Notes: generated by a model not told the origin, from the sequence alone. Shown: positions 30,055-55,310, counted from the first letter of the stretch. The stretch is 64,000 bases of DNA from an uncultured delta proteobacterium (GCA_963843145.1 CAWJJC010000022.1:32001-96000), one strand, 5' to 3'. Numbers and translations are program-made.

Positions 30055-30075
30055 GATGATTTCCTCCTTGAGAAT

Positions 30076-39251: not shown

Positions 39252-41770
39252 ATCAAACCCCCGGCGACTTTTGGAGCCTTCCCGCCGATCAATTGTTGCA
39301 GCAACTGGAGACAACCCCGGTGGGCCTCAAGGAGGCCGAAGCCCGGCAACGATTGCAGCGCTATGGACCCAACCTCCTTAAACTGGCCAGAAGATCCGAC
39401 ACCCTGACCCTTTTCTTGGGTCAATTCAAGAGCCCGATCATCTTGATTCTGATCTTTGCCGCCGGGTTATCCCTCGTACTTAAGGACTCGGTCGATGCCT
39501 TGATCATCCTGAGCATTGTGCTGGTCAGCGGCCTCCTGGGATATTGGCAGGAACGGGGGGCCTCTAAGGCGATCAAGGAATTATTGGCGTTGGTCCAAAT
39601 AAAGGCCATGGTCTTGCGTGACGGGGATCCCAGGGAACTTCCGGTCGAAGAGCTCGTTCCCGGGGATATCATCCAACTGACAGCCGGAGATGTCATACCC
39701 GGAGATGGAGTGCTTCTTCAATCCAAAGATCTATTTGTGGATGAGGCCACCTTGACCGGAGAAACCTATCCGGTGGAAAAAATGGCCGCGGTGCTGGCAC
39801 CCGAAACCCCGCTGGCTAAAAGGACCAACACCCTTTTTATGGGAACCCATGTGGTCAGCGGCAGCGCCCGGGCCCTGATAGTCCGAACCGGAATCGAAAC
39901 CGAATTCGGACGGGTTTCCGAACGGCTGAAACTCCGACCTCCCGAAACCGAGTTCGAACGCGGTGTCAGGCGTTTCGGCTACCTGCTCATGGAAGTGACC
40001 TTGATCCTGGTGATCGCCATCTTTGGTATTAATGTTTATCTGGCCCGGCCGGTGCTGGAGGCCTTCCTTTTTTCCATGGCCTTGGCCGTGGGGTTAACGC
40101 CCCAGCTTCTGCCGGCGATTATCAGCATCAATCTGGCCCATGGCGCCAAAAAGATGGCCCAGGCCAAGGTGATCGTTAAGCGCTTATCCTCGATTGAAAA
40201 TTTCGGCAGCATGAACGTCCTTTGTTCTGATAAGACCGGTACGTTGACCGAGGGGTTGGTCAAGGTCCACTCGGCCCTGGATTGTGAGGGCCGGGATAAC
40301 GAAAAGGCCCTCTTCTACGCCTTTCTGAATGCCTATTACGAAACCGGCTTTACCAATCCTATTGACCAGGCCATCTGTGCTTTCCGCACCTTTGACCTGT
40401 CCGGCTTTCAAAAACTCGATGAGATACCTTATGATTTTATTCGTAAGCGATTGAGTATCCTGGTTTCCCACGGCGAAAACCATCTGATCATTGCCAAGGG
40501 AGCTCTATCCAATATCCTGTCCGTTTGTTCCCGAGCGGAGACCTCCAGCGGGACCCTGGTGGAACTGAGCCAGGTTCGGGAGCAGATCGACCTTCACTTC
40601 AAAGAGTTCAGCAGTCAAGGCTTCCGTATGCTCGGGGTGGCCTATCGAGAAGTGAAGCCCGAGCTGGTTTTGACCAAAGACTTGGAAAGGGATTTGATAT
40701 TTCTGGGATTCCTGGTCCTCTTCGACCCGCCCAAGAGCGGCATTGTGGAGACGATTCATCAGCTCAAGAGTCTGGGCGTCTCACTCAAAATTATTACCGG
40801 GGATAACCGCCTGGTAGCGGCTACGATCGGTCAGGAGATGGGCCTTTCGAATCTTAACCTGATTACCGGCCCCGAAATTCAAAAGACCAGTGGCCGGGCC
40901 TTGCTGCAAAAGGTCAATACGGTAGATATCTTTGCCGAGGTAGAACCCAACCAGAAAGAGCGTGTTATCCTGGCTCTGAGAAAAGCGGGGAATGTCGTCG
41001 GTTACATGGGGGATGGCATTAATGACGTCTCGGCTCTGCACGCGGCCGATGTGGCTATCTCCGTGGAGCAAGCCGTGGATGTAGCCAAAGAGGCGGCGGA
41101 TATCGTTCTGCTGGAAAAGGACCTAAAGGTCCTGGCCCAGGGCATCGCCGAAGGACGGAGGACCTTCGCCAATACCCTCAAGTATGTCTTCATGGCCACC
41201 AGCGCCAACTTTGGCAATATGTTCAGTATGGCCGGGGCCTCCCTCTTTTTGCCCTTTCTGCCGCTGCTCCCCAAGCAGATCCTGCTGACCAATCTGCTGA
41301 CCGATTTTCCGGAGTTGACCATTGCCACCGACCGCGTGGACCCGGAAATGGTCGAAAAACCTCGCCGCTGGAATATCCGCTTCATCCGCAATTTTATGAT
41401 CACTTTCGGCTTGATCAGTTCGATCTTTGACTATTTAACTTTTGGCGTGCTCATTTTTTTCCTGAAGGCCCAACCCGAACAGTTTCGGATCGGCTGGTTT
41501 ATTGAATCCGTCATTTCGGCCTCTCTGATCGTCCTGGTAATACGCACGCGCCAGCCTTTTTTTAAGAGCCGGCCCAGTAAATATCTAGCGTTGGCCACCT
41601 TGCTGGTAACCGGGGTAACCCTGCTTTTTCCTTTTACTCCCCTGGGGGAGCTGTTTGATTTCAAGCCGCTGCCCTTCTATTTTCTCCTGTTATTGGCCGT
41701 TATTATGGGGATGTATATTGTTACTGCCGAAGCGGCAAAAAGGATCTTTTACCGGAAAATGAAATTTTGA
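39248..41770 (+). CDS. mgtA: Magnesium-translocating P-type ATPase
   Basis: LTGET, GLTPQLLP, DKTGT, PYDFIRKR, GDGIND and ATSANFGN motifs. Confidence 0.92.
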   Translation: MNQTPGDFWSLPADQLLQQLETTPVGLKEAEARQRLQRYGPNLLKLARRSDTLTLFLGQFKSPIILILIFAAGLSLVLKDSVDALIILSIVLVSGLLGYWQERGASKAIKELLALVQIKAMVLRDGDPRELPVEELVPGDIIQLTAGDVIPGDGVLLQSKDLFVDEATLTGETYPVEKMAAVLAPETPLAKRTNTLFMGTHVVSGSARALIVRTGIETEFGRVSERLKLRPPETEFERGVRRFGYLLMEVTLILVIAIFGINVYLARPVLEAFLFSMALAVGLTPQLLPAIISINLAHGAKKMAQAKVIVKRLSSIENFGSMNVLCSDKTGTLTEGLVKVHSALDCEGRDNEKALFYAFLNAYYETGFTNPIDQAICAFRTFDLSGFQKLDEIPYDFIRKRLSILVSHGENHLIIAKGALSNILSVCSRAETSSGTLVELSQVREQIDLHFKEFSSQGFRMLGVAYREVKPELVLTKDLERDLIFLGFLVLFDPPKSGIVETIHQLKSLGVSLKIITGDNRLVAATIGQEMGLSNLNLITGPEIQKTSGRALLQKVNTVDIFAEVEPNQKERVILALRKAGNVVGYMGDGINDVSALHAADVAISVEQAVDVAKEAADIVLLEKDLKVLAQGIAEGRRTFANTLKYVFMATSANFGNMFSMAGASLFLPFLPLLPKQILLTNLLTDFPELTIATDRVDPEMVEKPRRWNIRFIRNFMITFGLISSIFDYLTFGVLIFFLKAQPEQFRIGWFIESVISASLIVLVIRTRQPFFKSRPSKYLALATLLVTGVTLLFPFTPLGELFDFKPLPFYFLLLLAVIMGMYIVTAEAAKRIFYRKMKF

Positions 41771-41771
41771 T

Positions 41772-42494
41772 ATGCGTCCAGTCCCTGCGGAAAAAATTGT
41801 CGAACGGCATGATCTCCGGAATCAAGTCCGGGTTTTTCGAAACCGGGATCACGCCGGCCGGGTGCTGGCCGGTATGCTGGAAAAATTTAAGGGGACCGAT
41901 TCCCTGGTCCTGACGATTCCCTCGGGCGGGGTCCCGGTGGGGGTGGCCATTGCCGAAGAATTGAACCTGCCCCTGGAGGCCGCCGTGGTCAGCAAGATTA
42001 CCCTGCCCTGGAACACGGAGGCCGGGTATGGAGCCGTGGCCTTCGACGGTACGGTGCGGATCAATGAGGACTTGCTGCCTCATCTGCGGTTGAGCGAACA
42101 GCAGATCGCCGAGGGGGTCGAGAAGACCTGGCAGAAAGTGCAACGGCGGGTCAGGAGATTTCTGGGGGGACGGCCTTTCCCCGATCTCACCCATAAAACC
42201 ATTATCCTGGTGGACGACGGCTTGGCCTCCGGGTTCACCTTGCTAGTGTCGATAGAGGCTATTCGCCGCCTGGGGTCCGGGGAGATCATCATCGCCGTAC
42301 CGACCGGCAGCGCCGACCGGTTGCGCCAGGTGGCGCGGGAGGTGGATAGCCTCTACTGCGCCAATATCCGCGAAGGCTGGGGGTTTGCCGTGGCCGAGGC
42401 TTATCGGCGGTGGGTTGACCTGGAGGAAGAGGAGGCCGTACGGCTATTCAAGGATTATCAGGTCCGCTTTGAGAAGGCCCCTATCCCCATTTGA
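41772..42494 (+). CDS. Type I phosphoribosyltransferase family protein
   Basis: FRNRDHAG, IPSGGVPV and ILVDDGLASG PRPP loop. Confidence 0.88.
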   Translation: MRPVPAEKIVERHDLRNQVRVFRNRDHAGRVLAGMLEKFKGTDSLVLTIPSGGVPVGVAIAEELNLPLEAAVVSKITLPWNTEAGYGAVAFDGTVRINEDLLPHLRLSEQQIAEGVEKTWQKVQRRVRRFLGGRPFPDLTHKTIILVDDGLASGFTLLVSIEAIRRLGSGEIIIAVPTGSADRLRQVAREVDSLYCANIREGWGFAVAEAYRRWVDLEEEEAVRLFKDYQVRFEKAPIPI

Positions 42495-42578
42495 AAAGTC
42501 CTCCCCACATCCCTTTTCCCAGGCCAAGGCCTGGCAGGCTCAAGAGGAGTCAGAAGGAATAGGGGCCGTTGACAACAC

Positions 42579-43358
42579 CTATCGTTCTTTCCACTCCGGC
42601 TGTCTCTTTCCAATGGAAGCTGTCATGCCTTCGATGGCGTCGGGCCACTGGGCCTGGGAGGCCATCAACTCCTTGGCGTAATGATAGGCCTGGCGTTCGG
42701 GCATGTCGATCTGCTGGTAATAATGCTGCTTGGCCGTACCCAGGACCAGGATACTGTACTGGGCGATTTCCCGGGCTAGCTTCCAGGTCTCTTCTTCGAG
42801 ATTTTCATCGGCGACCACCCGGTTGATCAACCCCCATTCCAGGGCCTGTTGGGCGCTAATAAAGTTCCCGGTGAAAAGCATCTCCAGGCAGCGCTTGGAG
42901 CCGATGGCCCGGCTGACGGCCACCGTGGGGGTGGAACAGTTGTAGCCGATCTTGACCCCGGTCATGGCAAACTGGGCCTTTTTTTGACCGGCCACGGCCA
43001 GGTCGCAGCCGGCGACCAGGTGACAGCCACCGGCCATGGCGATCCCCTGGACCTGGGCGATAACCGGCTGGGGGATGGACCGCAAGGCGTCGTACATATC
43101 GATGCAGGTTTGAAAGAACCGGCGGACGTCGTTGATCGGCTGGTTCAGAATCTCCAAGCGGTCATGGCCGGAGCAGAACAGATCCCCCGCGGCCTGGATG
43201 ATGATCACCCGGACGGTTTTTTCGTGGCCGGCCACTTTCAAGCAATGGGTCATTTCCAGTTCGGCCTGGATGCCCAGAGCATTGCGCTTCTCCGGCCGGT
43301 TCAAAGTCAAGATGCCAATTTGTTCTTTTTCTTCATAAAGGATGTGCTGGTAGGACAT
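42579..43358 (-). CDS. Crotonase/enoyl-CoA hydratase family protein (ECHDC3-like)
   Basis: TLNRPEKRNAL, FCSGHD, AGGCHL and NCSTP motifs. Confidence 0.9.
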   Translation of the reverse strand: MSYQHILYEEKEQIGILTLNRPEKRNALGIQAELEMTHCLKVAGHEKTVRVIIIQAAGDLFCSGHDRLEILNQPINDVRRFFQTCIDMYDALRSIPQPVIAQVQGIAMAGGCHLVAGCDLAVAGQKKAQFAMTGVKIGYNCSTPTVAVSRAIGSKRCLEMLFTGNFISAQQALEWGLINRVVADENLEEETWKLAREIAQYSILVLGTAKQHYYQQIDMPERQAYHYAKELMASQAQWPDAIEGMTASIGKRQPEWKER

Positions 43359-43390
43359 GGGAGCGCTCCTTCAAAAAATGGGGTGGGGAT

Positions 43391-43483
43391 GAATGGAAGA
43401 TTGGAATAATGGAATAAAGGGAAAAACCCCCCGGGGCCTGAAGGTTTTATCATTATTCCAATATTCCATCATTCCATTACTCC
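43391..43483. repeat. Inverted pair of octamer tandem arrays
   Basis: GAATGGAA GATTGGAA TAATGGAA ... TTATTCCA ATATTCCA TCATTCCA TTACTCCG. Confidence 0.7.
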
Positions 43484-43507
43484 GAAACAGGTGATTCCTT
43501 TTCCGTG

Positions 43508-45022
43508 TTATCTTACCTCTTCCTTGTCCCGGAGCAGCCGCCGCAGGGCCTTGCCGGCCGCGGACCGGGGTATCTCGTCAATGAACTCCACAGCCGACGG
43601 GACCTTGTAGGGGGCCATTTTGGCCTTGCAGAAAGCCCGGATTTCTTCGGCGGTAGCCGTCTCACCTTCCTTAATCTGGATGAAAGCCTTCGGGGTCTCT
43701 CCCTTAAGTTCATCGGCGATGCCGATGACGACCACATCCTTAATCCGGGGATGGGCCAGCATCATATCCTCCACCTCGGAGGGGAAGACCTTTTCCCCAC
43801 CCACATTGATCATGTCTTTCAGGCGATCAACGATATAGGCATAACCCTCTTCATCCAGGTAGGCGATGTCCCCCGAGTGGAACCAGCCTTCGGCATCAAA
43901 GACCTGCCGGGTGGCCTCGGGTTTGTTCAGATACCCGCGGGTGACACAGGTCCCCCGCACGCAAAGTTCTCCCTGCTCCCTCGGGGGAAGGGTCCGGCCG
44001 CTGGGATCGACCACTTTCATCTGGGCATCGGCCATTCCTCGTCCGCAGGAGCCGATCCGGGTTTCGGTGTAGGGGGAGGTGGCGCCCACGCAGGAGACCT
44101 CGGTCAGTCCCCAGGCTTCGGCGTAACGCCAGTTCATATTTTCCTGGACCTGGCGGATGAGATTTTCCGGCATTTTGGTGGCGGCGGACAGACAAAAGAC
44201 CACGGAAGAGAGATCCCGTTGAGTCAGGTCCGGCAGCTTGAGGATCAGGTTGTACATGGGGGGGACGCCAATAAAGATCGTGGGCCTTAAGCGTTCGATA
44301 TCATGAACGGCTTTCTCGGGATAAAAACGCTCTACGGTGATCACCGTGCCTCCCCGGGAGAGCATGCCGAAGGTCCCATTGATCAAGCCCCAGCAATGGA
44401 AAATCGGGGTGGCCACCATAATGGTGTCCTGAGGGTTAAGATGGACTTTTCCGAACTCGACGGCGTTATGCCAAATGTTCAGATGGGTGGCCATGACCCC
44501 TTTAGGCCATCCCGTGGTTCCGGAGGTGTACATGAGGTGGCAGGTATCGCTGCCTTTAGTTCCCGGGTCCACGAAAACGGGGTCTGTTTCCCGCAGAATG
44601 GTTTCAAAGGCGGCGTAGGCCGGTCTACCCGATTCCTTCAACGGGATCACCGTGCTCAAAGAGGGGACCTCCGGTCGAACGGACTCGATGATCGGGAACC
44701 GGGTTTCGTCCACCAGGACAGCACTGGATTGGCAGTCCTTTAGAATGTAGGCCACTTCCTGTTCTTTGAGCAGGGCATTGACCACATTGACGATCAATCC
44801 GGCCCGGACCGTTCCCAGATACCCGATGATCAACTCCGGAAGGCTGGGGAGAAAGAGGGACAAGACGTCCCCTTTCTGCAATCCCAGTTTCAGGAAACCG
44901 GCAGCCGCCCGATCGATTAGCGTATCGAGTTCGGCGTAAGAGATGCGTCGATCTTCGAAGACAATCGCGGTTTTTTGAGGGGTTTCCTTTAAAGGTTTAT
45001 TGATGATTCGGGAAACATTCAT
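43508..45022 (-). CDS. AMP-forming acyl-CoA ligase
   Basis: YTSGTTGWPKG, WGLTE, SGDIA, DRLKD and PRSAAGK motifs. Confidence 0.93.
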   Translation of the reverse strand: MNVSRIINKPLKETPQKTAIVFEDRRISYAELDTLIDRAAAGFLKLGLQKGDVLSLFLPSLPELIIGYLGTVRAGLIVNVVNALLKEQEVAYILKDCQSSAVLVDETRFPIIESVRPEVPSLSTVIPLKESGRPAYAAFETILRETDPVFVDPGTKGSDTCHLMYTSGTTGWPKGVMATHLNIWHNAVEFGKVHLNPQDTIMVATPIFHCWGLINGTFGMLSRGGTVITVERFYPEKAVHDIERLRPTIFIGVPPMYNLILKLPDLTQRDLSSVVFCLSAATKMPENLIRQVQENMNWRYAEAWGLTEVSCVGATSPYTETRIGSCGRGMADAQMKVVDPSGRTLPPREQGELCVRGTCVTRGYLNKPEATRQVFDAEGWFHSGDIAYLDEEGYAYIVDRLKDMINVGGEKVFPSEVEDMMLAHPRIKDVVVIGIADELKGETPKAFIQIKEGETATAEEIRAFCKAKMAPYKVPSAVEFIDEIPRSAAGKALRRLLRDKEEVR

Positions 45023-45123
45023 ATCTTATCGAAACTCCTTGCTTTTTGCAAAACTTATAATTAATGTCTGGGATTGTCAATATTTTTCCCGTTGGCCGAT
45101 AGACGAAGCAGGAGGACAAAACC

Positions 45124-46182
45124 TTGAAGGACCATATCCCCTTGGGCGTCGGGTTTTACCCGGACTGGTGGAACAAGCATTACGGCCTCTCGTACGACCG
45201 GAATTATTATTTCGACCCGGAAACCCGGATCGCGGCCCGTTTGGAAATGGACCAAAGACTGCACGAACGTTTTGGGGACGTCGGCCTGGGAGACCCGGAC
45301 CCGAAGCCCAAACCCTTCATCACCTTCGGCATGGTCATGCTGCCGGCCATTTTCGGCTGCGAGATCGTCTTCAAGAAGGACGCCCTCCCCTGGGCCCTGC
45401 CGCTAAACCTATCCGAAGACCGGATCATGAAACTGGAGGTCCCGGACATTGGTAAGGTCTATCCCCTGACCGAGATAATTAAGCAGATTGATTATCTCCA
45501 GGGTAAATACGGGCGGGTCGTGGGGGATATCAATACCACCGGGGTCCAGAATCTGGCCTTGAAGCTGCGCGGCGAACAGCTTTATTTTGATTATTTTGAA
45601 AATCCGGACCTCTGCCATCACCTGCTGAGGGTCTGCACCCGGGCCATCATCCAATTATTCCAATGGGTCTATAAAATTACCGGGACCGGGGCCCTGGACG
45701 TGACCCCCATGTGCGACCCCCGGTTGTTTGTCCTGCCCAACTGCACGGTGGAGCAGGTTTCCCTGGGCACCTACGAAAAATTTAATCTGCCCTATGACAA
45801 TCAGGTGGCCAAGGCCTGTCATCCCCTGGGAATTCACCATTGCGGATCGGTGAACCAGGTCCTGGAGGGTTATGCCCGGGTCCGCCATTTGAAATTTTTA
45901 GAGATCGGTTTCGGATCGGACGTCCGGCGGACCCGCGAAGTCCTGGGGCCCAAGGTGGCGGTCAACGCCCGCATCAACCCCGTCCTGATGAAGAACGGGA
46001 CCCCGGAAGAGGTCTCCCAAGAAGTGCGCCGGTTGATCGACCAGGGCGATCCCCTGAAAAATTTTTCCATCGATACGGTCGGGCTGACCTTTGGCACCCC
46101 CGATGAAAATGTGAAGGCGGCCCGGCAGGCGGCGGCCGAATATGGAAAAATTACGAAAAAGAAGACTTCCATAAAGGAATAA
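45124..46182 (+). CDS. UroD/MtaA-fold protein, probable substrate:corrinoid methyltransferase (MT1)
   Basis: LRGEQLYFD, HHCG, GTPEEV and TPDENV motifs typical of the URO-D fold; TTG start after AGGAGG; operonic with a corrinoid protein. Confidence 0.8.
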   Translation: MKDHIPLGVGFYPDWWNKHYGLSYDRNYYFDPETRIAARLEMDQRLHERFGDVGLGDPDPKPKPFITFGMVMLPAIFGCEIVFKKDALPWALPLNLSEDRIMKLEVPDIGKVYPLTEIIKQIDYLQGKYGRVVGDINTTGVQNLALKLRGEQLYFDYFENPDLCHHLLRVCTRAIIQLFQWVYKITGTGALDVTPMCDPRLFVLPNCTVEQVSLGTYEKFNLPYDNQVAKACHPLGIHHCGSVNQVLEGYARVRHLKFLEIGFGSDVRRTREVLGPKVAVNARINPVLMKNGTPEEVSQEVRRLIDQGDPLKNFSIDTVGLTFGTPDENVKAARQAAAEYGKITKKKTSIKE

Positions 46183-46186
46183 AGTC

Positions 46187-47752
46187 TTGGTTTCAGGGGT
46201 ATCAAAAAAGAGGAAGCTCCTGGAAACAGCCGTTCAGAGCCCCACCCGGACGGTATGGATCGGGTCTCACCATCCTCTGGTGATCATCGGTGAACGGATC
46301 AATCCGACCGGACGGAAGAATCTGGCCCGGGCCCTGGAGGAAGGGGACCTGAAAATGGTGCAGGAAGAGGCTCTGGCCCAGGTTCGGGAAGGGGCGCATA
46401 TTCTGGACGTCAATGTCGGGGTTTCCGGGATTGATGAGCCTCGGGTCCTGCAGCAGGCCATCCGGGCCATTCAGGAGGTAACGGAGGCGCCGTTATGCCT
46501 TGATTCCGCCCTGCCCCGGGCCCTGGAGGCCGGGTTGGAAGTGTACCGGGGAAAGGCGTTGGTCAATTCCGTTAATGGAGAATCGGAGAAACTGGATCGG
46601 ATCCTGCCGCTGGTTAAGGCTCACGGGGCGGCGGTGATCGGCCTGACCATGGACGATCGGGGTATACCCCAAAAGGCCGAGGACCGGCTGGAGATCGCCC
46701 GAACCATCGTGAAGCGCGCTGAAAAAATGGGAATATCCCGGGAAGACGTGATCATCGATCCCTTGGCCATGGCCCTGAGCGCCGACCACCTTACCGCCCT
46801 GGAAACCCTGAAGGCCCTGCGGATGATCCGCGAAGAACTGGGCGTCAACCTGACCCTCGGCCTATCCAATATTTCCTTCGGTCTGCCGGACCGTACGACG
46901 ATCAATGCGGCCTTTTTAAACATGGCGGTTTGGAGCGGGCTCACCTGTGCCATCATGGATCCCACGATTCGGGAGATGCACCGGGCCGCCCTGCTGGGGG
47001 ATTTGCTGCTGGGTAAAGATGAAAACTGCCTGAAATACATTGACGTGATGGGGCGAAGGGTTAGAGGTGAGGAAGCGCTGCTGGCGGGACCTAGTCCAGC
47101 CGAGGCCCCCTCCGGCGACCTGGAACGGCTGAAGTCGGCGGTAATCGAGGGAAAACGAAGGGCAGCGGAGGAGCTCACCCGCCGGGTCCTGGAGGGGGGG
47201 ACTGACCCGCAGGAGATCATCCAGGGGACGCTGATCCCGGCCCTGAACGTGGTCGGGGAACGGTTCGAAAACCGGAAGATCTTCGTCCCGGAAATGATGG
47301 TCTCGGCCAAGGCCATGCAGGCCTGCGTGGACCTGGTCAAGCCCCATTTGAAGCAGGCGGCGGAGGAATCCCCGCTGGCCACTATCGTGCTGGGCACGGT
47401 ATTCGGTGATCTCCACGACATCGGGAAAAATCTGGTGAAGCTGCTCCTGGAATCGGCCGGCTTCCGGGTGGTCGATCTGGGGGAAAACGTCCCGGCCGAG
47501 CGATTCGTGGCGGCGGCCCGGGAACATCAGGCGCGGGTGGTCGGCCTGTCATCACTGCTGACCACCGGCGACCCTTTCGTGGAGCAGACCATCAAGGCTA
47601 TCAGGGCCAGCGACATCGCCGGAAAGGTCAAGGTGGTCTGCGGCGGCGCGGCCCTCACCCCGAAATTCGTTCTGGATACCTGCGGCGCCGACGCCCACGC
47701 CAAAGACGCGGCCGACGGGCTGAAGAAGATCAAGGAGATGGTTAGAATTTAA
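46187..47752 (+). CDS. Fusion of a pterin-binding methyltransferase (AcsE/MetH-like) and a corrinoid protein (cap plus B12-binding)
   Basis: IIGERINPTG, DVNVG, VNSV and GLSNISFGLP; then IFVPEMM, GDLHDIGKNLV (DxHxxG), SSLLT and GGA. Confidence 0.9.
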   Translation: MVSGVSKKRKLLETAVQSPTRTVWIGSHHPLVIIGERINPTGRKNLARALEEGDLKMVQEEALAQVREGAHILDVNVGVSGIDEPRVLQQAIRAIQEVTEAPLCLDSALPRALEAGLEVYRGKALVNSVNGESEKLDRILPLVKAHGAAVIGLTMDDRGIPQKAEDRLEIARTIVKRAEKMGISREDVIIDPLAMALSADHLTALETLKALRMIREELGVNLTLGLSNISFGLPDRTTINAAFLNMAVWSGLTCAIMDPTIREMHRAALLGDLLLGKDENCLKYIDVMGRRVRGEEALLAGPSPAEAPSGDLERLKSAVIEGKRRAAEELTRRVLEGGTDPQEIIQGTLIPALNVVGERFENRKIFVPEMMVSAKAMQACVDLVKPHLKQAAEESPLATIVLGTVFGDLHDIGKNLVKLLLESAGFRVVDLGENVPAERFVAAAREHQARVVGLSSLLTTGDPFVEQTIKAIRASDIAGKVKVVCGGAALTPKFVLDTCGADAHAKDAADGLKKIKEMVRI

Positions 47753-47791
47753 TTTATCAGGGTTACGAATTTTTTTGCCGGCAGTCCTTTT

Positions 47792-49645
47792 ATGGTCTCC
47801 ATACTTTTCCTGCCTTTTCAAAAATCAATTGAAACCGATGGCCGGAGGACCCTCCTGGAGCTGGGCCGCGAGTTAAGGTTGCCGTTACAGGCTGCCTGCG
47901 GAGGGAAGAAAATCTGCGGGCGGTGCCGGGTCATCGTTGAAGAAACCAGGGAACTCTTGCCAGCGCCCACGGAAAGGGAACGGGAGGTCTTAGGGGATTT
48001 AGTTGAAATGGGCTACCGGCTGGCCTGTGAAACGGTTTTGTCCAGGGGGGCGCGGGTGCGCATCCCGGAAGAGAGTCAAATCCGCCCCCCCGTTATTCTG
48101 ACCTCCGACGGGTTCGGCGAACTCCCGGTCCGCCTGCGGCCCGCGGTGGGGGCTTATTATCTGGAGGTGCCTCTGCCGGTCCAGGGGCGGGTGATTGCCG
48201 ATCGGGAAAGACTGCTTCAAGCACTGGAAGCGGATTATGGACTTAAAAAAGTCGACATCGACCCGCTCGTTCTGCCGCACCTCCCCCAAACCCTTCGAGC
48301 CTTGGAAAATCGAGTCACGGCGGCCGTCCGGAACGGCCGGAAGGTGGTGGGGTTATTCCCGGGGCGGGAAGGACGGCTGCTGGGCCTGGCCGTGGATATC
48401 GGGACGACTACGCTGGTGGCCTATCTCCTCGATCTTCTGACCGGAGAACGGCTGGCAGTCTCTTCGGCCTTGAACCCGCAGGGCCATTTTGGGGATGACG
48501 TCATTACCCGGATCGCCTTTGGTCAGAAGGACCCGGTAGGAGCGGTTCAACTCCGGGAGGCCGTCAGGCTAGGAATCAATGATCTGATTGGCCGGGTGGT
48601 GGAAAAGGCCGGCGTTCGGCCGGAGCTGATTCTGGAAGCGGCCGTGGTGGGGAATACGGCCATGCATCATTTTTTCCTGGGTTTGGAAACACAATTTTTG
48701 GCCAGGGCGCCGTACCCCCCGGTGGTCCAGGAAGGTTTGTTTATAAAGGCCCGCGACGCCGGGCTGGCCATCAACCCTTCCGGAACGGTGCATTTGCTGC
48801 CGCTCAAGGCCGGGTTTGTCGGCGGCGATATTATCGCCGGCATTCTGGCCACGGGGCTGCATAAGTCCAGTCAGGTCCGGCTGCTGATCGATTTAGGTAC
48901 AAACGGGGAAATCGTTTTAGGAAATAAAGACCGGATCCTCTGCTGCTCCACGGCCGCTGGCCCGGCCTTCGAGGGCGGGCATATCCGCTGGGGCATGCGG
49001 GCCTCGGCCGGGGCAGTGGAAAAGGTTCGGATCGATCCGCGGTCCCTGGAGATCAGCCTGGAGACGATAGAGGACCAGCCTCCCCAGGGCCTCTGTGGAT
49101 CCGGTATCCTTTCCCTGGTGGCCGAGATGATCCGGGGGGGGGTTCTTCTGGCCAAGGGAAATTTTAATCGGGAGATTACCTCCCCTCGCTTGCGGGCAGG
49201 ACGAGACGGCCAGGAAATGGTGCTCCTCCGGCACTGGGAGTCCCTGACCGACCAGGAAATCGTCTTTACTCAAAAGGATGTCGCTGAAGTACAAATGGCC
49301 AAGGCCGCCATTCAAGCAGGGGTCGGTCTGCTGAAGGAATTGTTCGGGAATAACCCGATCGAGGAAATTCTTCTGGCCGGAGCCTTTGGAAATTATGCCG
49401 ATCCGGAAGACGCCCGGACCCTGGGACTTATTCCGGCTTTACCGGCACCCAAGGTCCGCGGCGTTGGAAACGCGGCCGGATACGGGGCCTGCCTGACCCT
49501 GTTGGATAAAAACCGGGCGAAGGAAGCCGACCGGATTGCTCGAAAGTTGGAGTATGTAGAACTGGCCGGGAACAGCCGGTTTCAGGAACTGCTGGTGGAC
49601 AGCCTGCTTTTTCCGGAGGCGAAGGATTATAAGGATTTTTTTTGA
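47792..49645 (+). CDS. Second RACo/RamA-type corrinoid reductive activator
   Basis: ACGGKKICGRC...LAC, DIGTTT, GNTAM, DLGTNGE, AGPAFEG and AGAFG motifs. Confidence 0.92.
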   Translation: MVSILFLPFQKSIETDGRRTLLELGRELRLPLQAACGGKKICGRCRVIVEETRELLPAPTEREREVLGDLVEMGYRLACETVLSRGARVRIPEESQIRPPVILTSDGFGELPVRLRPAVGAYYLEVPLPVQGRVIADRERLLQALEADYGLKKVDIDPLVLPHLPQTLRALENRVTAAVRNGRKVVGLFPGREGRLLGLAVDIGTTTLVAYLLDLLTGERLAVSSALNPQGHFGDDVITRIAFGQKDPVGAVQLREAVRLGINDLIGRVVEKAGVRPELILEAAVVGNTAMHHFFLGLETQFLARAPYPPVVQEGLFIKARDAGLAINPSGTVHLLPLKAGFVGGDIIAGILATGLHKSSQVRLLIDLGTNGEIVLGNKDRILCCSTAAGPAFEGGHIRWGMRASAGAVEKVRIDPRSLEISLETIEDQPPQGLCGSGILSLVAEMIRGGVLLAKGNFNREITSPRLRAGRDGQEMVLLRHWESLTDQEIVFTQKDVAEVQMAKAAIQAGVGLLKELFGNNPIEEILLAGAFGNYADPEDARTLGLIPALPAPKVRGVGNAAGYGACLTLLDKNRAKEADRIARKLEYVELAGNSRFQELLVDSLLFPEAKDYKDFF

Positions 49646-49789
49646 TTAGCGGGTACCAGGACAGAAAGGCTGATACTGGATGACGACCCAAAAGCCTTGA
49701 CCCACCGCCCTATTTGCATCGTTCGCGAGTGGCCATTCGGTTACGGGGGTTTAATAAGGGAATAGCTTTCTACGCCAATTGGCCCTTTT

Positions 49790-49836
49790 TGTCATTCTGA
49801 AGGAGTCACGCCCAGGCGTGACGATTGAAGAATCTC
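49790..49836. repeat. REP-like sequence
   Basis: TGTCATTCTGAAGGA-GTCACGCC ca GGCGTGAC-GATTGAAGAATCTC, with an internal hairpin. Confidence 0.5.
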
Positions 49837-49845
49837 CCTGGCAAG

Positions 49846-49995
49846 ATGCGCATCAAAGGCCTGGTGCTGCTCGGCGTCATGATCGCGGCCACAATCTTTT
49901 ATTTATTTGCCGGGAATTTGAAAGGCTGCACCGTCACCCGGGTTGGCAACCAGCCGACACAGGACTCAAAAACCGTTGCACCTGAAAGGAGGTAA
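49846..49995 (+). CDS. Putative small membrane or exported protein (49 aa)
   Basis: MRIKGLVLLGVMIAATIFYLFAGNLKGCTVTRVGNQPTQDSKTVAPERR*; no clear RBS. Confidence 0.45.
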   Translation: MRIKGLVLLGVMIAATIFYLFAGNLKGCTVTRVGNQPTQDSKTVAPERR

Positions 49996-49996
49996 T

Positions 49997-50686
49997 TCAA
50001 CCCAGTATGATCAAGGCATCCACTGCGATGGGTTGGCCGTCCGGTTGAATTTTTAAGGGATTGATGTCGATTTCACGAATGACGGGATTTTCCAGGCCTA
50101 TGGTTCCCAAGGTGATTAAAATGTCGGCCAAGGCTTCCCGATCAACCGGCGGCATCCCCCGAAAGGCGTCCAGGATCTTTCGGCCGCGAAATTCTTCCAT
50201 CATTTGCCGGGCGTCCCAGCGGGACAGAGGCGCCACCCGGAAAGCCACATCTTCCAAAGCCTCCGTGTAAATACCCCCTAACCCGATCATCACACTGGGC
50301 CCGAACTGAGGATCGCGAACCAGTCCGGCTACCAACTCTCGCTCGCCCGCTACCATCTGCTGCACCAGCATTTGCTTCAACGGCACTTGGGTAGCGGCGG
50401 CAAGCTGCTCATAGGCTTCCCTGAGGGCCGAATCGTCTTTCAGACCGAGCTTAAGCAGGCCCAATTCCGTCTTGTGAAGCAGTTCCTCCCCCGAGCCTTT
50501 GAGCGCCAGCGGATAGCCGAGGGCTTCGGCCGCCGCCAGGGCCGCCTTCAAGGAGCTAACGGCTTTCTCGGGTGTAGTCGGAATACCATAGTCCGCAAGA
50601 AACCGTTTGGAGTGGTACTCGCTCAGGGCGCGGGCGCCGCGCGATTGGGCCTGTTGCAGCACTTCGTTCCGGACCGCCACGATCAA
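49997..50686 (-). CDS. ADP-forming acyl/acetate-CoA ligase beta (ATP-grasp) subunit
   Basis: LSEYHSK, GYPLALK, HKTE, DPQFGP and DINPL motifs. Confidence 0.9.
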   Translation of the reverse strand: MIVAVRNEVLQQAQSRGARALSEYHSKRFLADYGIPTTPEKAVSSLKAALAAAEALGYPLALKGSGEELLHKTELGLLKLGLKDDSALREAYEQLAAATQVPLKQMLVQQMVAGERELVAGLVRDPQFGPSVMIGLGGIYTEALEDVAFRVAPLSRWDARQMMEEFRGRKILDAFRGMPPVDREALADILITLGTIGLENPVIREIDINPLKIQPDGQPIAVDALIILG

Positions 50687-52152
50687 TCCTCCTCCCGGGC
50701 GTTTAGAAATTTCCCGTAATCGACCATCATCCGCAAGACCCGCACCGCCCTTTCCGGCGTAGGGTAGGAGGCCAAGCCGTAGACTTCCATTGATTCCTTA
50801 TGGAAATCCTGGGAACCCATGGTCACCGAAATGATGGGCTTTCCGGTTTCCTTGATTAAGGCCCCGGTAAAATTCATAACTTTATGGTGGCTTTCCTGAT
50901 AATAGGCGGCGATCTGTTTCAAGAGTCCTTCCTGGGCCTTCAACTGTTCATGGAAGCGGGGCTTGTCCGAAACCCGTCCGGGGATGCTGGCCCGTCCGCC
51001 CAGGGCGATGACTGCGTCGATCCCCTTCCAGCGGGCCAGCGTCTCCAGGCATTCCATGAAGGGTTCGGCGGTGATGACGGCGGCCATGTCCACCGGGTTG
51101 TTGCGGCTCCAGTAGCGGGGGAGAATTTTATCCAGCTTGTGAATTATTTCTTCGGGAAGCCGGGGGACGATCAATCCGGCTTCCTCGCAGGCATCGGTAG
51201 TGATTACCCCCCAACCGCCGCCCCGGGTCAAAATCGCCACCCGGTTTCCACGGGGGATCGGGAAGAGGGTCAGGGCCTTGGTGCAATCCATGATTTCCTG
51301 GGTGGTTGAGGCCTCGATTAAGCCCGTTTGCCGAAAGACGCCTTGATAGATGCGGTAGGAGCCGGCCAGGGCGCCGCTGTGCGAGGCAGCCGCCCGGGTA
51401 CCGGCTTGGGTCCGCCCCCCCTTGAAAACCACTACCGGTTTTTTTTTGGAAGCCTCCCGGGCCGCGGGCAGGAACTCGGAGTCGGCATCAACCCCCTCCA
51501 GGTAGGCCAGGATAACCCGGGTCGCTTCATCCTCGGCGAAGTACTTCAGGTAGTCTACGCAGGTCAGATCCCCTTCATTGCCGCTGCTGACAAACTTCTC
51601 AAAACCGATGCCGGCCTCCACCCCCCAGGCCAGTATCTGGGTGCCGATGTTTCCGCTTTGGGAAAACATGGAGACCGGCCCCGGAAGCGGCTCCACCGGC
51701 GGCATCAGGGCATGGAGGCTGGACTGGGCGCTGAAAAGACCCATGGTATTGGGGCCCACCAGGCGGATACCATACCCCCGAGCCTTGGCTACCACCACCT
51801 GCTCCAGGGTGGCGCCTTCAGCCCCGGTTTCACTGAAATCCGAGGTGATGACTACCAGATTGGGGATTTTTTTGGCGCCACAGGCATCGATCAATCCCAG
51901 GACGGTTTCCGCCGGGGTGGCGATAACGGCCAGGTCTACGGGACCGGGGATATCTTCAATTTTGGCAAAACAGGGAACCCCTAAAACCTCCTTGGCCCGG
52001 GCATTGACCGGGTAAATCGTACCCTGGTAATTCCCTTTGAGGATATTTAAGAAGACGAAGAAGCCCCATTTGCCGGGAGTGCCGGAGGCGCCGATCAAGG
52101 CCATCTGCCGCGGATTGAAGAGCAGGTCGAGATTCGGGTGCGTTCTATCCAT
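50683..52152 (-). CDS. ADP-forming acyl/acetate-CoA ligase alpha (CoA-binding) subunit
   Basis: IGAS, GPNTMG, SQSG, GNE, SHSGA (phospho-His) and NPVD motifs. Confidence 0.9.
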   Translation of the reverse strand: MDRTHPNLDLLFNPRQMALIGASGTPGKWGFFVFLNILKGNYQGTIYPVNARAKEVLGVPCFAKIEDIPGPVDLAVIATPAETVLGLIDACGAKKIPNLVVITSDFSETGAEGATLEQVVVAKARGYGIRLVGPNTMGLFSAQSSLHALMPPVEPLPGPVSMFSQSGNIGTQILAWGVEAGIGFEKFVSSGNEGDLTCVDYLKYFAEDEATRVILAYLEGVDADSEFLPAAREASKKKPVVVFKGGRTQAGTRAAASHSGALAGSYRIYQGVFRQTGLIEASTTQEIMDCTKALTLFPIPRGNRVAILTRGGGWGVITTDACEEAGLIVPRLPEEIIHKLDKILPRYWSRNNPVDMAAVITAEPFMECLETLARWKGIDAVIALGGRASIPGRVSDKPRFHEQLKAQEGLLKQIAAYYQESHHKVMNFTGALIKETGKPIISVTMGSQDFHKESMEVYGLASYPTPERAVRVLRMMVDYGKFLNAREED

Positions 52153-52181
52153 AATAAAAGGAATCAAAAAGAAGGCGATAA

Positions 52182-52203
52182 ATTGATTGATAAGTCAATC
52201 AAT
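52182..52203. promoter_or_regulatory. Perfect palindromic operator upstream of the ligase alpha gene
   Basis: ATTGATTGA-taag-TCAATCAAT. Confidence 0.6.
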
Positions 52204-52322
52204 AATATACAGCAAAGAGAGGGATCCGGTCAACTAAAAACGGTTTGGTATAATTTTAGAAACCGTTTATAATCAGTCCGGATTTGCAGGCTGAAAAATA
52301 TTTTCTGAGGGAGGACGCTGCC

Positions 52323-52895
52323 ATGGATCAAGATTTTATAGTCGCGGAAATGGGCGAAAAGCCGGAGATTAAAGGGGAGCACCTGGTTGAAGAGGTTACC
52401 GCCCAGGAGGTCAATATAACCCACAGCGGCGTCCAGGATGTGCGGGCGGCCACCGTGACCCTGCGGCAGGCAGGCGCCCGCTCGGTAAGCGCCGATCACC
52501 TGACCATCAAGCAGGGAGGAGCCGTAAAAGCCGAGGCCGAAAACCTGGAAATGACCCAGGGATGCCTGGTCGCGGCCAAGACCAAAACGGCCAAGCTGAA
52601 CACCTCCATGGCGACCCTGCTTGTTGCCCAGGGCGACGTAGAGATGGAGCAGTCCGGCGCCCAATTGCTTTTGGCCAAAGGAGAGGTGAAAATGGACCAG
52701 AGTGGAGCGGTCATTCTGGTTTCCAGAAGTGTCAAGGCGGAACATTCCGGGGTCACCTTTTTAATAGCCCGTGAGGTTGAAGGAGACCTCAAGGTCTCCT
52801 TTGGTCCCAGGGAGTCTTTTGTTTTCGGCACCGTAGCCGGCCTGGTGGGCGGGCTGACGTATTACCTCTTGCGCCGGCTGCAGCCAGGGAGATGA
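52323..52895 (+). CDS. Hypothetical repeat protein with C-terminal TM anchor
   Basis: GAGGAGG RBS; ~15-aa repeats; hydrophobic C-terminus followed by RRLQPGR. Confidence 0.75.
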   Translation: MDQDFIVAEMGEKPEIKGEHLVEEVTAQEVNITHSGVQDVRAATVTLRQAGARSVSADHLTIKQGGAVKAEAENLEMTQGCLVAAKTKTAKLNTSMATLLVAQGDVEMEQSGAQLLLAKGEVKMDQSGAVILVSRSVKAEHSGVTFLIAREVEGDLKVSFGPRESFVFGTVAGLVGGLTYYLLRRLQPGR

Positions 52896-52965
52896 AAAGC
52901 CGTGACTTGGCCAGCGGGTGTTGTTTGAAATCGGCTAAAGTTTCCTTCCCGGCGGGTATTGAAAC

Positions 52966-55188
52966 TTGACCCGGCCCCGGATCCAAGACCTCAGCCTTAA
53001 ATGGAAATTGGTCATTCCCTTTCTTTTCCTCGCGGCCATGGGGGCGGCCGCCCTGTTTGTTGTTTCCTATCGGTTCCAGGCCAGCCTGATCCAGGTTAAT
53101 GAAGACACGCGGCTGAGAAATCTTTATCAGGTCTTCTTAAACGACATTGAATCGCGAAAAAATGCAGCCCTGAGTCTGGCCTACCTGACCGCCAAAAATC
53201 CGGAGGTGGCCGAGGCCCTGGCCCGAAGGGACCGAAACCGTTTGATCACCCTGCTGTATCCCGCTTATCAGATCCTGGAAAGAGATTTCGGGGTCAGGCA
53301 GTTTCACTTCCACCTTCCCCCGGCCACCTCGTTTTTGCGGCTTCACGCCCTGGGCCGGTACGGGGAAAAAATGGAGGCCTACCGGCCGACGATCAACCGG
53401 GTCCGGGAGACCGGAGTCGGGGTGGGCGGGATCGAACGGGGGGTCCTGGGCTTGAGCATCCGCAGTGTGGCACCTGTTTTTTATCAGGGCCGCCAGATCG
53501 GGACGGTGGAATTCGGGCTCTCCCTGGAGAAGCCGCTTTTAAATGAATTTAAGAAGAATTATGGTTCGGACGTCGTTCTCTATATCCAAGAAAAACCTGA
53601 GCAAGATGGGCCCAAAGTCTTTGCCTCCACCCTGGAGCAGACCTTCCTGCCTAAGAAACTTTTCAGTCGATTGCTGGCTTCCGGGGAGGTGGTATTTCAA
53701 CCGGAGTTTCTTGGAAACCGTAAGATGGCCTCTATCATCGGACCGGTCCGGGACTTTTCCACCAAGATTATCGGGGTGGTGAAAATAAGCGTTGATCGAA
53801 GCCCGACCCTCTCCTTGCTCAATCGATATGCCTTTCTGGCCGCCGGGCTCGGTCTCCTCGGGTTGGCCGCCTCCATTTGCTTTGTCTGGTTTATTTCCGT
53901 TGCCTTTACTCGGCGGATTGGTGAGGTGGTCAAGGGTGCCGACGAAATCGCCTCCGGCCGTCGCGATACCCGCCTGGCCATAAAGAGCGGGGATGAACTG
54001 GGAGTCATGGCCCGGGCCATTAACCAGATGTTGGCATCTTTGGAGACTTCACAATCTCATCTCCAAGAGTATGCCCAAAACCTGGAGTCTATGGTCGAAC
54101 AGCGGACACGGAGCCTGAAAGAATCCGAGAAGACCTACCGGACCCTGGTGGAAAATGTCCCCCTTATCGTCTATATGATTCAACCGGATGGGACCACGGC
54201 TTTTTTGAACCGTTCGGTTGAACAGATCCTCGGCGCGCCTCCTCAACAGATGAATGGTCGGTATGATATATGGACCGGTTACATCCATCCGGAAGACCGC
54301 GATCGCATCGTTGCCCTAAGGGAAAACTGCCTGAGGGATAGAAAAGAACTTCACACGGAATACCGGATGGTTCATAAGGGAGGCGCCGTGGTCCATGTTT
54401 TTGAACACGCGGTTCCCGTTTACGATGAGGAAAAGAATTTTATTCGGATGGACGGTATCGTGGTTGACGTTACGGTGAACAAAGAACTGCAGGAGAAGAT
54501 CCTTCAGGCCCAGGAACTGGAAACCCTGGGGCAGATTTCGGCCCGGATGGCCCATGAAGTGCGCAACCCACTCACTGCGATCGGCGGACTGGCCAGGCGC
54601 TTGGTTAAATCCTTCGAACCCTCGGATCCCAGGTTGGAAAAAGGCCGACTGATCGTCGACCAGGTTCAAAAACTCGAAAAGATATTGCAAATGATGCTCG
54701 CCTATATTGAACCTCCCTCGATCCGCTTGCAGCCCGGAGACCTTAACCTGGCAGTCACCCGAGCTATTGCCGGCCTTCGAACGGAAAACCCGCCTGACGG
54801 TTTTTCCGTCAGAACCACCCTGGACCAGGATCTGGGTCTGATAAAGCTGGACCAGGACTTGTTGGAAGAAACACTGACGCACTTGCTGGAACACGCCCGG
54901 CAGCATATGGGGGGGAAAGGCGAACTAGAAGTGGCCACCCGCAAGAATGGAGCCCAGGCAACCGTAACGCTGGGTTACCCGGTACCCAGCCTTTCCGAGG
55001 AGGATCTGGAGCATTTTTTCTATCCCTTTGCCCTGGACGCCTCTCCGGAAAAAGGGGGCCTGGGAACCGAGCGGGGGGACGTTTCCCTGGTCAAAATCGT
55101 TATTCACCGGCACGGCGGCGTGATCAACGTCAGCAAAGAAAATGGTGACCGGATAAAAATCACCATCTCCCTTCCTCGGGCTTCCTAA
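52966..55188 (+). CDS. Cache-HAMP-PAS sensor kinase-like protein with degenerate ATPase domain
   Basis: QFHFH...SFLRLH Cache, HAMP, IHPEDR PAS and AHEVRNPL motifs; N and G1 boxes degenerate. Confidence 0.85.
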   Translation: MTRPRIQDLSLKWKLVIPFLFLAAMGAAALFVVSYRFQASLIQVNEDTRLRNLYQVFLNDIESRKNAALSLAYLTAKNPEVAEALARRDRNRLITLLYPAYQILERDFGVRQFHFHLPPATSFLRLHALGRYGEKMEAYRPTINRVRETGVGVGGIERGVLGLSIRSVAPVFYQGRQIGTVEFGLSLEKPLLNEFKKNYGSDVVLYIQEKPEQDGPKVFASTLEQTFLPKKLFSRLLASGEVVFQPEFLGNRKMASIIGPVRDFSTKIIGVVKISVDRSPTLSLLNRYAFLAAGLGLLGLAASICFVWFISVAFTRRIGEVVKGADEIASGRRDTRLAIKSGDELGVMARAINQMLASLETSQSHLQEYAQNLESMVEQRTRSLKESEKTYRTLVENVPLIVYMIQPDGTTAFLNRSVEQILGAPPQQMNGRYDIWTGYIHPEDRDRIVALRENCLRDRKELHTEYRMVHKGGAVVHVFEHAVPVYDEEKNFIRMDGIVVDVTVNKELQEKILQAQELETLGQISARMAHEVRNPLTAIGGLARRLVKSFEPSDPRLEKGRLIVDQVQKLEKILQMMLAYIEPPSIRLQPGDLNLAVTRAIAGLRTENPPDGFSVRTTLDQDLGLIKLDQDLLEETLTHLLEHARQHMGGKGELEVATRKNGAQATVTLGYPVPSLSEEDLEHFFYPFALDASPEKGGLGTERGDVSLVKIVIHRHGGVINVSKENGDRIKITISLPRAS

Positions 55189-55310
55189 AAATCCCGTACC
55201 GCCAAGGAGACGTCAGACCCCCGGTTGCCTCAGGGGTCCGTATCGAGGTGCAAGCACCTAAAAGAGTAATCGGGGGAAGTCTTCTTTTAGAGAGGGAAAG
55301 GAGAGAGGTT

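Follow-up and report, generated by a model that had tools for sequence, protein, structure and literature searches.

A Corrinoid Methyltransferase Module Linked to CoA-Ester Genes in an Uncultured Delta Proteobacterium: Candidate Methyl Harvesting from a Methylated Carboxylic Acid

A stretch of 64,000 nucleotides (nt) from an uncultured delta proteobacterium (GCA_963843145.1, CAWJJC010000022.1:32001-96000), hereafter the window, with positions counted from its first letter, carries a corrinoid methyltransferase module beside genes for coenzyme A (CoA) ester metabolism at 42579-52152. The link of this module to an acyl-CoA ligase and to a crotonase-fold protein is real, as seen in gene adjacency, in spacing like that of cotranscribed genes and in genome-wide co-occurrence. 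In relatives of sulfate-reducing bacteria this uncharacterized methyltransferase keeps the company of a CoA-activating enzyme and of an atypical crotonase-like protein, a consistent partnership that points to a methylated acid as the substrate. In the reading that we prefer, and to which we give an even chance, the genes encode a substrate-inducible, corrinoid-dependent system that would harvest methyl groups from a methylated carboxylic acid, most plausibly a methylthio-acid or an aryl-methoxy-acid, while the remaining skeleton would be handled as a CoA ester by a crotonase that is not a hydratase.

Linkage of the Methyltransferase Module to CoA-Ester Genes

The methyltransferase operon begins with an open reading frame (ORF) of the uroporphyrinogen decarboxylase (UroD) superfamily (45124-46182, plus strand). 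Divergent from it on the minus strand lie an AMP-forming acyl-CoA ligase (43508-45022; Pfam AMP-binding, 308 bits, and AMP-binding_C) and a crotonase-fold protein resembling ECHDC3 (42579-43358; Pfam ECH_1, 182 bits), and the intergenic region between ligase and UroD-like ORF measures 101 nt (45023-45123), matching the spacer of about 100 bp given in a preliminary description of the window. The seven ORFs of the region were all found where that description placed them, and each of its domain calls is backed by Pfam. In species-representative genomes, a scan gave matches in 251 stretches; 122 of them encode a relative of the UroD-like protein, and 80 loci were kept. Adjacency was determined by tblastn with the proteins of the window over these 80 loci, and upstream counts refer to loci with at least 3 kb of upstream flank. 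Crotonase orthologs, taken at 50% identity or more, adjoin the UroD-like gene in 31 of 54 loci; by clade, they do so in 24 of the 30 loci at 70% identity or above and in 6 of 21 in the 55-65% clade. The ligase ortholog is adjacent in 19 of 54 loci, all of them in the closer clade. Crotonase orientation was scored in 38 loci: the gene is divergent in 29, with the ligase between in 19, and codirectional in 9, in 6 of which it lies only 52-149 nt upstream.

The tree of the UroD-like family comprises 73 rows (72 loci and the window); the eight loci left out had partial or interrupted matches. It divides into two clades, each fully supported, and both include loci with an adjacent crotonase, a distribution that takes at least seven changes. 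Loci that lack the ligase often have a two-subunit GctAB-like family I CoA-transferase beside the crotonase. All five Desulfarculaceae-type genomes without an adjacent crotonase encode the ortholog (55-60% identity) elsewhere, and the same GctAB-like CoA-transferase lies alongside these distant crotonases in four of the four regions examined.

The association also holds at the level of whole genomes. Among 21 genomes of the window's order, 13 carry the UroD-like gene. The preliminary description had tied its methyltransferase 1 (MT1) to the ligase and crotonase and named rare co-occurrence of the orthologs as a ground against that link; this ground clearly fails, with the crotonase in 11 and the ligase in 11 genomes, all within those 13, and neither ortholog in any of the 8 genomes of the order that lack the UroD-like gene. 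In a 401-genome sample of the phylum, the UroD-like gene is patchy (18 genomes), and a crotonase (E ≤ 1e-75) occurs in 17 of the 18 carriers versus 20 of 383 non-carriers.

Some loci would also suit an explanation in which the ligase, the crotonase and a nearby ADP-forming acyl-CoA synthetase are unrelated neighbors of a stand-alone methyltransferase that acts on a non-carboxylic substrate, for instance a methyl halide or methyl sulfide. Synteny of the ADP-forming synthetase is limited to close kin, Desulfarculaceae-type loci have an ATP-binding cassette (ABC) transporter instead of CoA genes beside the methyltransferase, and in one genus (g4) the ligase and crotonase, as a unit, are on other contigs than the methyltransferase genes. 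However, within families the three genes vary together in presence and absence (f1, 7/7 versus 0/7; f15, 5/6 versus 1/6), the spacing in the six codirectional loci suggests cotranscription, and the same crotonase pairs with either a ligase or a CoA-transferase according to clade. We consider mere neighborhood highly unlikely. In genus g4, the ligase, crotonase, a NUDIX-like protein and a 3-hydroxyacyl-CoA dehydrogenase make up a conserved unit that is separate from the methyltransferase genes (L097:878-5424, L099:22-4067 and L090:6275-10592). The NUDIX-like protein, which measures about 300 amino acids (aa) and matches NUDIX only weakly, is found again in L031, L034 and L035; a tblastn search at E 1e-10 did not find it in the genome of the window.

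The UroD-Like Domain

The 352-aa UroD-like ORF falls within the UroD superfamily by its URO-D match (PF01208, 62.3 bits against a cut-off of 23.9) and its predicted UroD-type TIM-barrel fold. The AlphaFold2 model of the domain (pLDDT, its predicted local distance difference test score, 89.9) is nearest by VIA to MtaA (4ay7; Z 24.1, rmsd 3.9 over 307 residues), with UroDs at Z 21-23 (4exq, Z 23.3) and core MetE-type enzymes at Z 14-15, and Foldseek concurs for this model (TM 0.66-0.70). At the sequence level the domain stays below all NCBIfam cut-offs for MtaA, MtbA and CmuA (for MtaA and CmuA, TIGR01463 gives 46.3 versus 235.4 and NF004889 gives 54.1 versus 244). A plain sequence search of the PDB with the ORF gave no match, and a profile of the family gave a sole match there, the chloromethane MT1 CdmB (9rui; 26 bits, E 2.9e-5, C-terminal half), a best match that favors a stand-alone methyltransferase among unrelated neighbors but is weak.

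Eight residues are invariant in the family: C79, C207, E210, H238, H239, C240, E260 and D317. The H238-H239-C240 segment aligns with the H-I-C of three MtaA-like paralogs encoded in the window's genome, while C207 and E210 are invariants specific to the UroD-like family. The zinc motif of MtaA is H-x-C...C. The ORF has no N-terminal extension, and MT1s of the O-demethylase and CdmB type are about 430-470 aa long. The preliminary description was right about the UroD fold, which both PF01208 and the structural comparisons support, but its term MT1 is an assumption, because short MtaA-like paralogs come nearer to the domain in score than the classical long O-demethylase MT1s do.

Searches returned 393 UroD-like matches among 2759 candidates, and the best 120, at 62-100% identity, include no functional name, only "uroporphyrinogen decarboxylase family" or "hypothetical". 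A representative search yielded 134 UroD-like clusters at E ≤ 1e-30. The ESM Atlas was also tried as a source of a name and returned only clusters labeled "putative methylcobalamin:CoM methyltransferase / URO-D". Full-text literature searches turned up no account of the family or of the fusion described below, though the supplements of the Cdm and mlp papers, outside these searches, might list members. As judged by sequence and by the predicted structure, the UroD-like domain is a new, unnamed family with its fold nearest to MtaA and UroD and with an H-x-C segment like that of the MtaA zinc motif.

The UroD-like gene is single-copy in its genome, which contains three classical sets of MT1, corrinoid protein and pterin methyltransferase besides this system. 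Classical long MT1-like UroD proteins of 422, 446 and 468 aa are encoded on contigs C11 (52-64 kb, L082) and C27 (430-434 kb, L083), where they sit with corrinoid proteins and pterin methyltransferases and are adjoined by LivK-type ABC transporters and AMP-forming ligases. These gene sets suggest that the organism uses methoxy-aromatic acids. On contig C23 (135-141 kb, L084:3010-9281), two MtaA-like UroD proteins (338 and 369 aa) and a corrinoid protein are encoded with a 1150-aa reductive activator of corrinoid (RACo), in which a Fer4_20/pyridine-nucleotide-disulfide-oxidoreductase (GltD-like) module is inserted between the middle and C-terminal domains; this cluster may be mlp-like.

The Pterin/B12 Part, Its Activator and a MetH-Like Fusion

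The UroD-like ORF is followed after 4 nt by a 521-aa ORF (46187-47752, plus strand; Pterin_bind 106, B12-binding_2 77 and B12-binding 89 bits) and, after a further 39 nt, by the gene for a 617-aa RACo-type ATP-dependent activator (47792-49645, plus strand). The 521-aa ORF belongs with methyltetrahydrofolate:corrinoid methyltransferases (NF005719, 310.7 versus 259; PF00809, 106 versus 25.5), and its corrinoid domain carries the motif DLHDIG (D-x-H-x-x-G). The MetH model TIGR02082 aligns over MetH positions 320-856 only, at 303.9 against a cut-off of 1010.85. All four RACo/RamA-type domains of the activator (Fer2, RACo_linker, RACo_middle and RACo_C_ter) exceed their Pfam cut-offs, its N terminus bears a 2Fe-2S motif, C-x5-C-x2-C...C, and it scores 425 against the cut-off of 800 for the AcsV equivalog, to which it is therefore not assigned. 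Of the 55 loci whose downstream flank reaches 5 kb or more, 46 encode a RACo homolog there, in the orientation of the UroD-like gene.

In most relatives the UroD-like and pterin/B12 parts are joined. They form a single open frame of 819-1069 aa, typically about 876 aa, in 43 of the 80 loci, and in the 877-aa representative the domains follow the order URO-D (68-342), Pterin_bind (391-613), B12-binding_2 (669-740) and B12-binding (754-865), an order like that of MetH. Open frames of 876-903 aa occur in 10 of the 13 carriers of the window's order, and by tblastn over the 80 loci the pterin/B12 part follows the UroD-like part wherever the sequence continues. The other deep clade has three genes, of about 346, 285 and 216 aa. 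The preliminary description had assigned all four functions of a corrinoid methyl relay to three genes; the functions are indeed present (methyltransferase domain, corrinoid domain, pterin methyltransferase and dedicated RACo), but the usual number of genes is two, a triple fusion and the RACo.

The split into 352 and 521 aa is peculiar to the window among the window and the 80 loci. A 97% identical relative (L001) reads through as 875 aa, the difference being one extra base in an A-rich linker. Elsewhere in the window, gyrA (22975-25535) appears as two overlapping ORFs of 600 and 276 aa with a G7 homopolymer (24685-24691) at the frame change. Because gyrA is also split at this G7 run, homopolymer indels in the assembly are likely, a point that bears on every apparent gene split in the window, and the split between the UroD-like and pterin/B12 ORFs may be such an indel. 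The sequence AAGGA stands 9 nt 5' of the TTG start of the pterin/B12 ORF, so a genuine split is possible too. When contigs from public sequencing runs were compared with 44900-49700, none spanned the junction (46175-46187). Contigs from a wetland RNA run are 90-99% alike to parts of both methyltransferase ORFs, a hint that relatives are transcribed.

The CoA-Ester Enzymes

The nearest PDB relatives of the crotonase are 3myb (185 bits) and human ECHDC3 (2vx2, 179 bits). It has the fold of enoyl-CoA hydratases (PF00378, 182 bits) without their catalytic glutamates, which are Glu144 and Glu164 in rat numbering: in alignments to the mitochondrial hydratases 2hw5 and 8zru, GGCEL is replaced by GGCHL (H113) and FAQPE by FAMTG. 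Since both glutamates are lost, the words "processed by the crotonase" of the preliminary description would hardly stand for ordinary hydration, and the protein is probably not a hydratase. Its invariant residues, in 23 of 23 orthologs, are H65, D66, H113, Y139, N140, C141 and R150. Of these, H65 and Y139-N140 align with H66 and Y140-N141 of Escherichia coli ScpB (25% identity), in which the His66/Tyr140 pair has a catalytic role in methylmalonyl-CoA decarboxylation; the methylmalonyl-CoA decarboxylase model NF008506 scores 120.1 on the crotonase against a cut-off of 257. The reaction would be a decarboxylation or an elimination on a CoA ester.

A DmdD-type crotonase was considered and rejected. 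DmdD, a methylthioacryloyl-CoA hydratase, uses both catalytic glutamates; both are absent here, and no chain named DmdD was found among the 58 PDB matches at E ≤ 1e-20. A DmdB-type ligase was likewise set aside, as 6ihk, which we take to be DmdB, matches the ligase at only 175 bits, below 4-coumarate-CoA ligase. The best solved relatives of the ligase are 4-coumarate-CoA ligases, FadD13 and oxalate-, feruloyl- and benzoate-CoA ligases. An attempt to name the substrate from these relatives and from the NCBIfam names of the neighbors gave generic names throughout, none specific enough. A second AMP-forming ligase is encoded 10 kb upstream, in a segment (28852-33304) that also carries a thiolase and a class-II aldolase-like protein; this ligase, at 514 bits, falls a little short of the 558 required by the malonyl-CoA synthase model.

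Convergent with the RACo gene on the minus strand are the beta subunit (49997-50686; ATP-grasp_5) and alpha subunit (50683-52167; CoA_binding and Succ_CoA_lig) of an ADP-forming acyl-CoA synthetase (ACD), assigned as such by the Pfam domains of both subunits. The synthetase does not reach the acetate-specific equivalog TIGR02717 (453 versus 567 bits). Homologs at 65-97% identity adjoin the module only in the three closest loci, L001-L003, and a distant homolog of the alpha subunit (29-35% identity) lies beside four other loci. The recovery of ATP by this enzyme, as the preliminary description had it, is therefore weakly founded, and its membership in the system is doubtful.

Regulation and Recurrent Neighbors

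A sigma-54 activator with a PAS domain is encoded in 27 loci, and 12 of 78 loci have a sigma-54 promoter consensus (TGGYRY-N5-TYGCW) at 56-141 nt before the UroD-like start, where about 0.0085 are expected per 400 nt. Recurrent neighbors include CobW-like GTPases, tripartite ATP-independent periplasmic (TRAP) permeases, SsuA-type ABC systems with TauE and IOR-type oxidoreductases; NCBIfam names among them are a weak SsuA family, a PrdR-like activator and IOR alpha. A DUF1638 protein is encoded near the UroD-like gene in 11 loci; DUF1638 has been tied to corrinoid reactivation by genetic work (PMC5764234). The sigma-54 promoters and activators, together with the nearby uptake systems, suggest inducible catabolism.

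In the window, the sequence AGGAGG lies within the divergent spacer, 9 nt 5' of the TTG start of the UroD-like ORF, and this spacer (45023-45123) contains neither a sigma-54 consensus nor an Rfam match. Matches to the sigma-54 pattern across the window number fewer than in shuffled sequence (17 versus a mean of 23), and counts of sigma-70 promoters and terminators are no better than in shuffles. Neither 41000-53500 nor 12 related loci gave a relevant Rfam match, the hits being limited to a sub-threshold small nucleolar RNA and a cyclic di-GMP-I riboswitch aptamer. The aptamer (L009:6672-6755, minus strand; 72 bits) is about 1.7 kb downstream of the RACo gene of its locus.

A Proposed Path for the Methyl Group and for the Carbon Skeleton

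In the mechanism that we propose, the UroD/MtaA-fold domain, acting as a zinc-type enzyme, would move the methyl group of the substrate onto the Co(I) of the B12 domain, which in most relatives is part of the same polypeptide. The methyl group of the resulting CH3-Co(III) would pass to tetrahydrofolate (THF) by way of the pterin-binding domain, and cobalt inactivated as Co(II) would be re-reduced by the dedicated RACo with the expenditure of ATP. The carbon skeleton would take the form of a CoA thioester, made by the AMP-forming ligase here and by the GctAB-like CoA-transferase in other lineages, and the ECHDC3-like enzyme would convert this thioester by a non-hydratase reaction, decarboxylation or beta-elimination being likeliest. 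The methyl-THF (CH3-THF) formed would enter the methyl branch of the Wood-Ljungdahl pathway of the same genome. Characterized bacterial clusters of methyltransferase, corrinoid protein, pterin methyltransferase and activator are methyl harvesters (PMC10418091; PMC13222342).

The preliminary description had also placed the sink for CH3-THF in the window, and an acetyl-CoA synthase/carbon monoxide dehydrogenase (ACS/CODH) cluster does lie there, at about 7.3-18.9 kb, with an AcsE-like protein, two CdhD-type proteins, ACS, CODH and CooC. It carries its own RACo, the second in the window. Beside it, at 5879-6967, is a gene for a DUF362 protein with a 4Fe-4S dicluster domain; a second DUF362 protein is encoded at 55248-56216, after a dCache/PAS histidine kinase (52966-55188).

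Several points count against harvesting as we propose it. The direction of methyl flow, like the use of zinc, the order of the steps, the reaction of the crotonase and the substrate, is something that we infer, and the domain order of the fusion copies that of MetH. MetH methylates a thiol from CH3-THF, H-x-C is the thiol-activating motif of MtaA-type enzymes, and methyl transfer from a thioether to THF is uphill by the energetics of Mtr and MetH. In hhalign comparisons the UroD-like domain scores 81.8% (E 1.1e-5) against a short MtaA-like paralog and 43% (E 2.5e-4, 146 columns) against the long, 468-aa O-demethylase-like MT1 paralog. The third Cys of the MtaA motif is absent, its column being Val, with the invariant D317 two residues before it. 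The crotonase homologs of the 20 non-carrier genomes are 48-55% identical and stand in housekeeping contexts, and because they occur in genomes without the UroD-like gene the crotonase family is not exclusive to the system. Related genomes are not independent samples, so the co-occurrence is given without a P value. The cluster in the window itself has no adjacent sigma-54 site, activator gene or transporter.

Part of this evidence would be accommodated if the methyl group flowed in reverse. An enzyme of MetH architecture would then take its methyl group from the CH3-THF of the Wood-Ljungdahl pathway and place it on a thiol that is not homocysteine, candidates being a mercapto-acid, its CoA ester and sulfide/methanethiol, with the UroD/MtaA-like zinc domain in place of the Hcy domain and RACo in place of the reactivation domain. 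The UroD-like, pterin, cap and B12 modules are ordered as in MetH, the pterin/B12 part aligns with the corresponding MetH segment, H-x-C aligns with that of the MtaA-like paralogs, and the predicted fold, nearest to MtaA, also matches core MetE-type enzymes. Methylation of a thiol from CH3-THF is thermodynamically favorable. In Ruegeria pomeroyi, a corrinoid/pterin module is documented to run both ways (PMC12478193). Nevertheless, the uptake systems, sigma-54 activators and CoA-activating enzymes alongside look catabolic, no thiol-forming or methylthio-using genes recur near the UroD-like gene in related loci, and the third Cys of the MtaA zinc motif is missing. We hold reverse flow to be unlikely, though it is the chief alternative.

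Another explanation would be a methionine synthase, a MetH replacement in which the UroD-like domain binds homocysteine. The window's genome, 97.9% complete, has no PF02574 or PF01717 match; across the 21 genomes of the order PF02574 is found in none and PF01717 only weakly (21-32 bits) in 6. In Phaeobacter and Desulfovibrio, MetH is reactivated with the help of RamA-like DUF4445 and DUF1638 proteins (PMC5764234). Even so, the UroD-like gene is confined to 13 of the 21 genomes of the order and is patchy across the phylum sample, and its presence does not complement the weak MetE-like matches. The neighbors are transporters, sigma-54 activators, a ligase or CoA-transferase and the crotonase rather than methionine genes, and the tight co-occurrence with crotonase and ligase would be left unexplained. 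We give this explanation only a slight chance. Two other UroD-like paralogs were tried as a universal methionine synthase of the order and discarded, being present in only 5/21 and 10/21 genomes. Either the methionine synthase of the order would lie outside the PF02574 and PF01717 types or the organisms would need methionine.

Within methyl harvesting from a methylated acid, one bolder variant, distinctly unlikely in our estimation, would turn the thermodynamic objection into a part of the mechanism. Methyl groups would come from a methylthio-acid or from its CoA thioester, for example of the 3-methylthiopropionate type, and the fusion would be the missing thioether:tetrahydrofolate methyltransferase of sulfate reducers. 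The repurposed ECHDC3-like crotonase would remove the mercapto-acyl-CoA product by elimination or decarboxylation and thereby pull the uphill transfer. If this were true, it would be the first case of a mechanistic coupling between a corrinoid methyltransferase system and CoA-thioester chemistry, and the ECHDC3 family would gain a function.

The range of methylated compounds that anaerobes can channel into the Wood-Ljungdahl pathway, among them lignin methoxy groups, methyl sulfides, methyl halides and betaines, is set by corrinoid methyltransferase systems, and with each new methyltransferase family of distinct substrate specificity another part of the carbon or sulfur cycle has been opened up. 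The UroD-like family occurs at 60-80% identity in several families of Desulfobacterota, in assemblies from soil, groundwater and marine sediment. Its MetH-like triple fusion should be convenient for biochemistry because one polypeptide and a RACo may reconstitute the whole methyl relay. The partnership with a CoA-activating enzyme and an ECHDC3-like protein provides a handle both on the substrate and on the reaction of a crotonase subfamily that includes an uncharacterized human protein.

Comparison with Known Systems

The crotonase shares with ECHDC3 the GHD motif and the loss of both hydratase glutamates; ECHDC3 has no known reaction, its human member being uncharacterized. It differs from ScpB/YgfG, with which its identity is limited to 25% and in which position 113, a His in the crotonase, is Glu.

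MtaA, MtbA, MtsA and MtpA, the methylcobamide:thiol methyltransferases of methanogens, are the closest to the UroD-like domain in predicted fold (4ay7) and similar in length, with the H-x-C aligned to that of MtaA-like paralogs, and MtpA is reported to act on a methylthio-acid (bioRxiv 10.1101/548461). In contrast to these enzymes, the UroD-like domain, at 17-18% identity and with scores below the cut-offs (54 versus 244; 46 versus 235), lacks the third zinc Cys, and its system works with a THF-type pterin domain rather than with coenzyme M. Type 1 mlp clusters of non-methanogens (Kountz and Balskus preprint, PMC10418091) likewise bring MtaA-like members of the UroD superfamily together with a corrinoid protein and with an activator of the RamA type. 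They have two or three Mlp paralogs and no THF methyltransferase and are mostly from Firmicutes, whereas the UroD-like cluster has one methyltransferase domain and a pterin domain. The possibly mlp-like cluster on contig C23 of the window's genome is separate from the UroD-like cluster.

Like MetH, the fusion is ordered as substrate methyltransferase, pterin, cap and B12 modules, with the D-x-H-x-x-G ligand motif and a 304-bit alignment, and like split forms of MetH (PMC5764234), it has a DUF4445-type reactivator, with DUF1638 nearby in those 11 loci. Unlike MetH, it has neither the Hcy domain PF02574 nor the S-adenosylmethionine-dependent reactivation domain, reaches only 304 of the 1011 bits required by TIGR02082, and is patchy in distribution with catabolic neighbors.

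In its overall organization the system resembles the O-demethylases of acetogens and archaea (MtvABC, OdmABCD and MtoABCD) and the chloromethane system CdmBCA with its activating enzyme, all of which combine a UroD-superfamily methyltransferase, a capped B12 protein or domain, a pterin methyltransferase to THF and a RACo/RamA activator. In addition, these systems too are clustered and found in Wood-Ljungdahl anaerobes (PMC13222342). However, the UroD-like domain, of about 350 aa, is short beside CdmB (a 429-aa chain) and the classical MT1-like proteins of its own genome (422-468 aa), keeps the MtaA-type H-x-C and matches CdmB at only 26 bits. Moreover, unlike its O-demethylase and Cdm counterparts, it is usually fused to both other modules and is coupled to CoA-ester enzymes.

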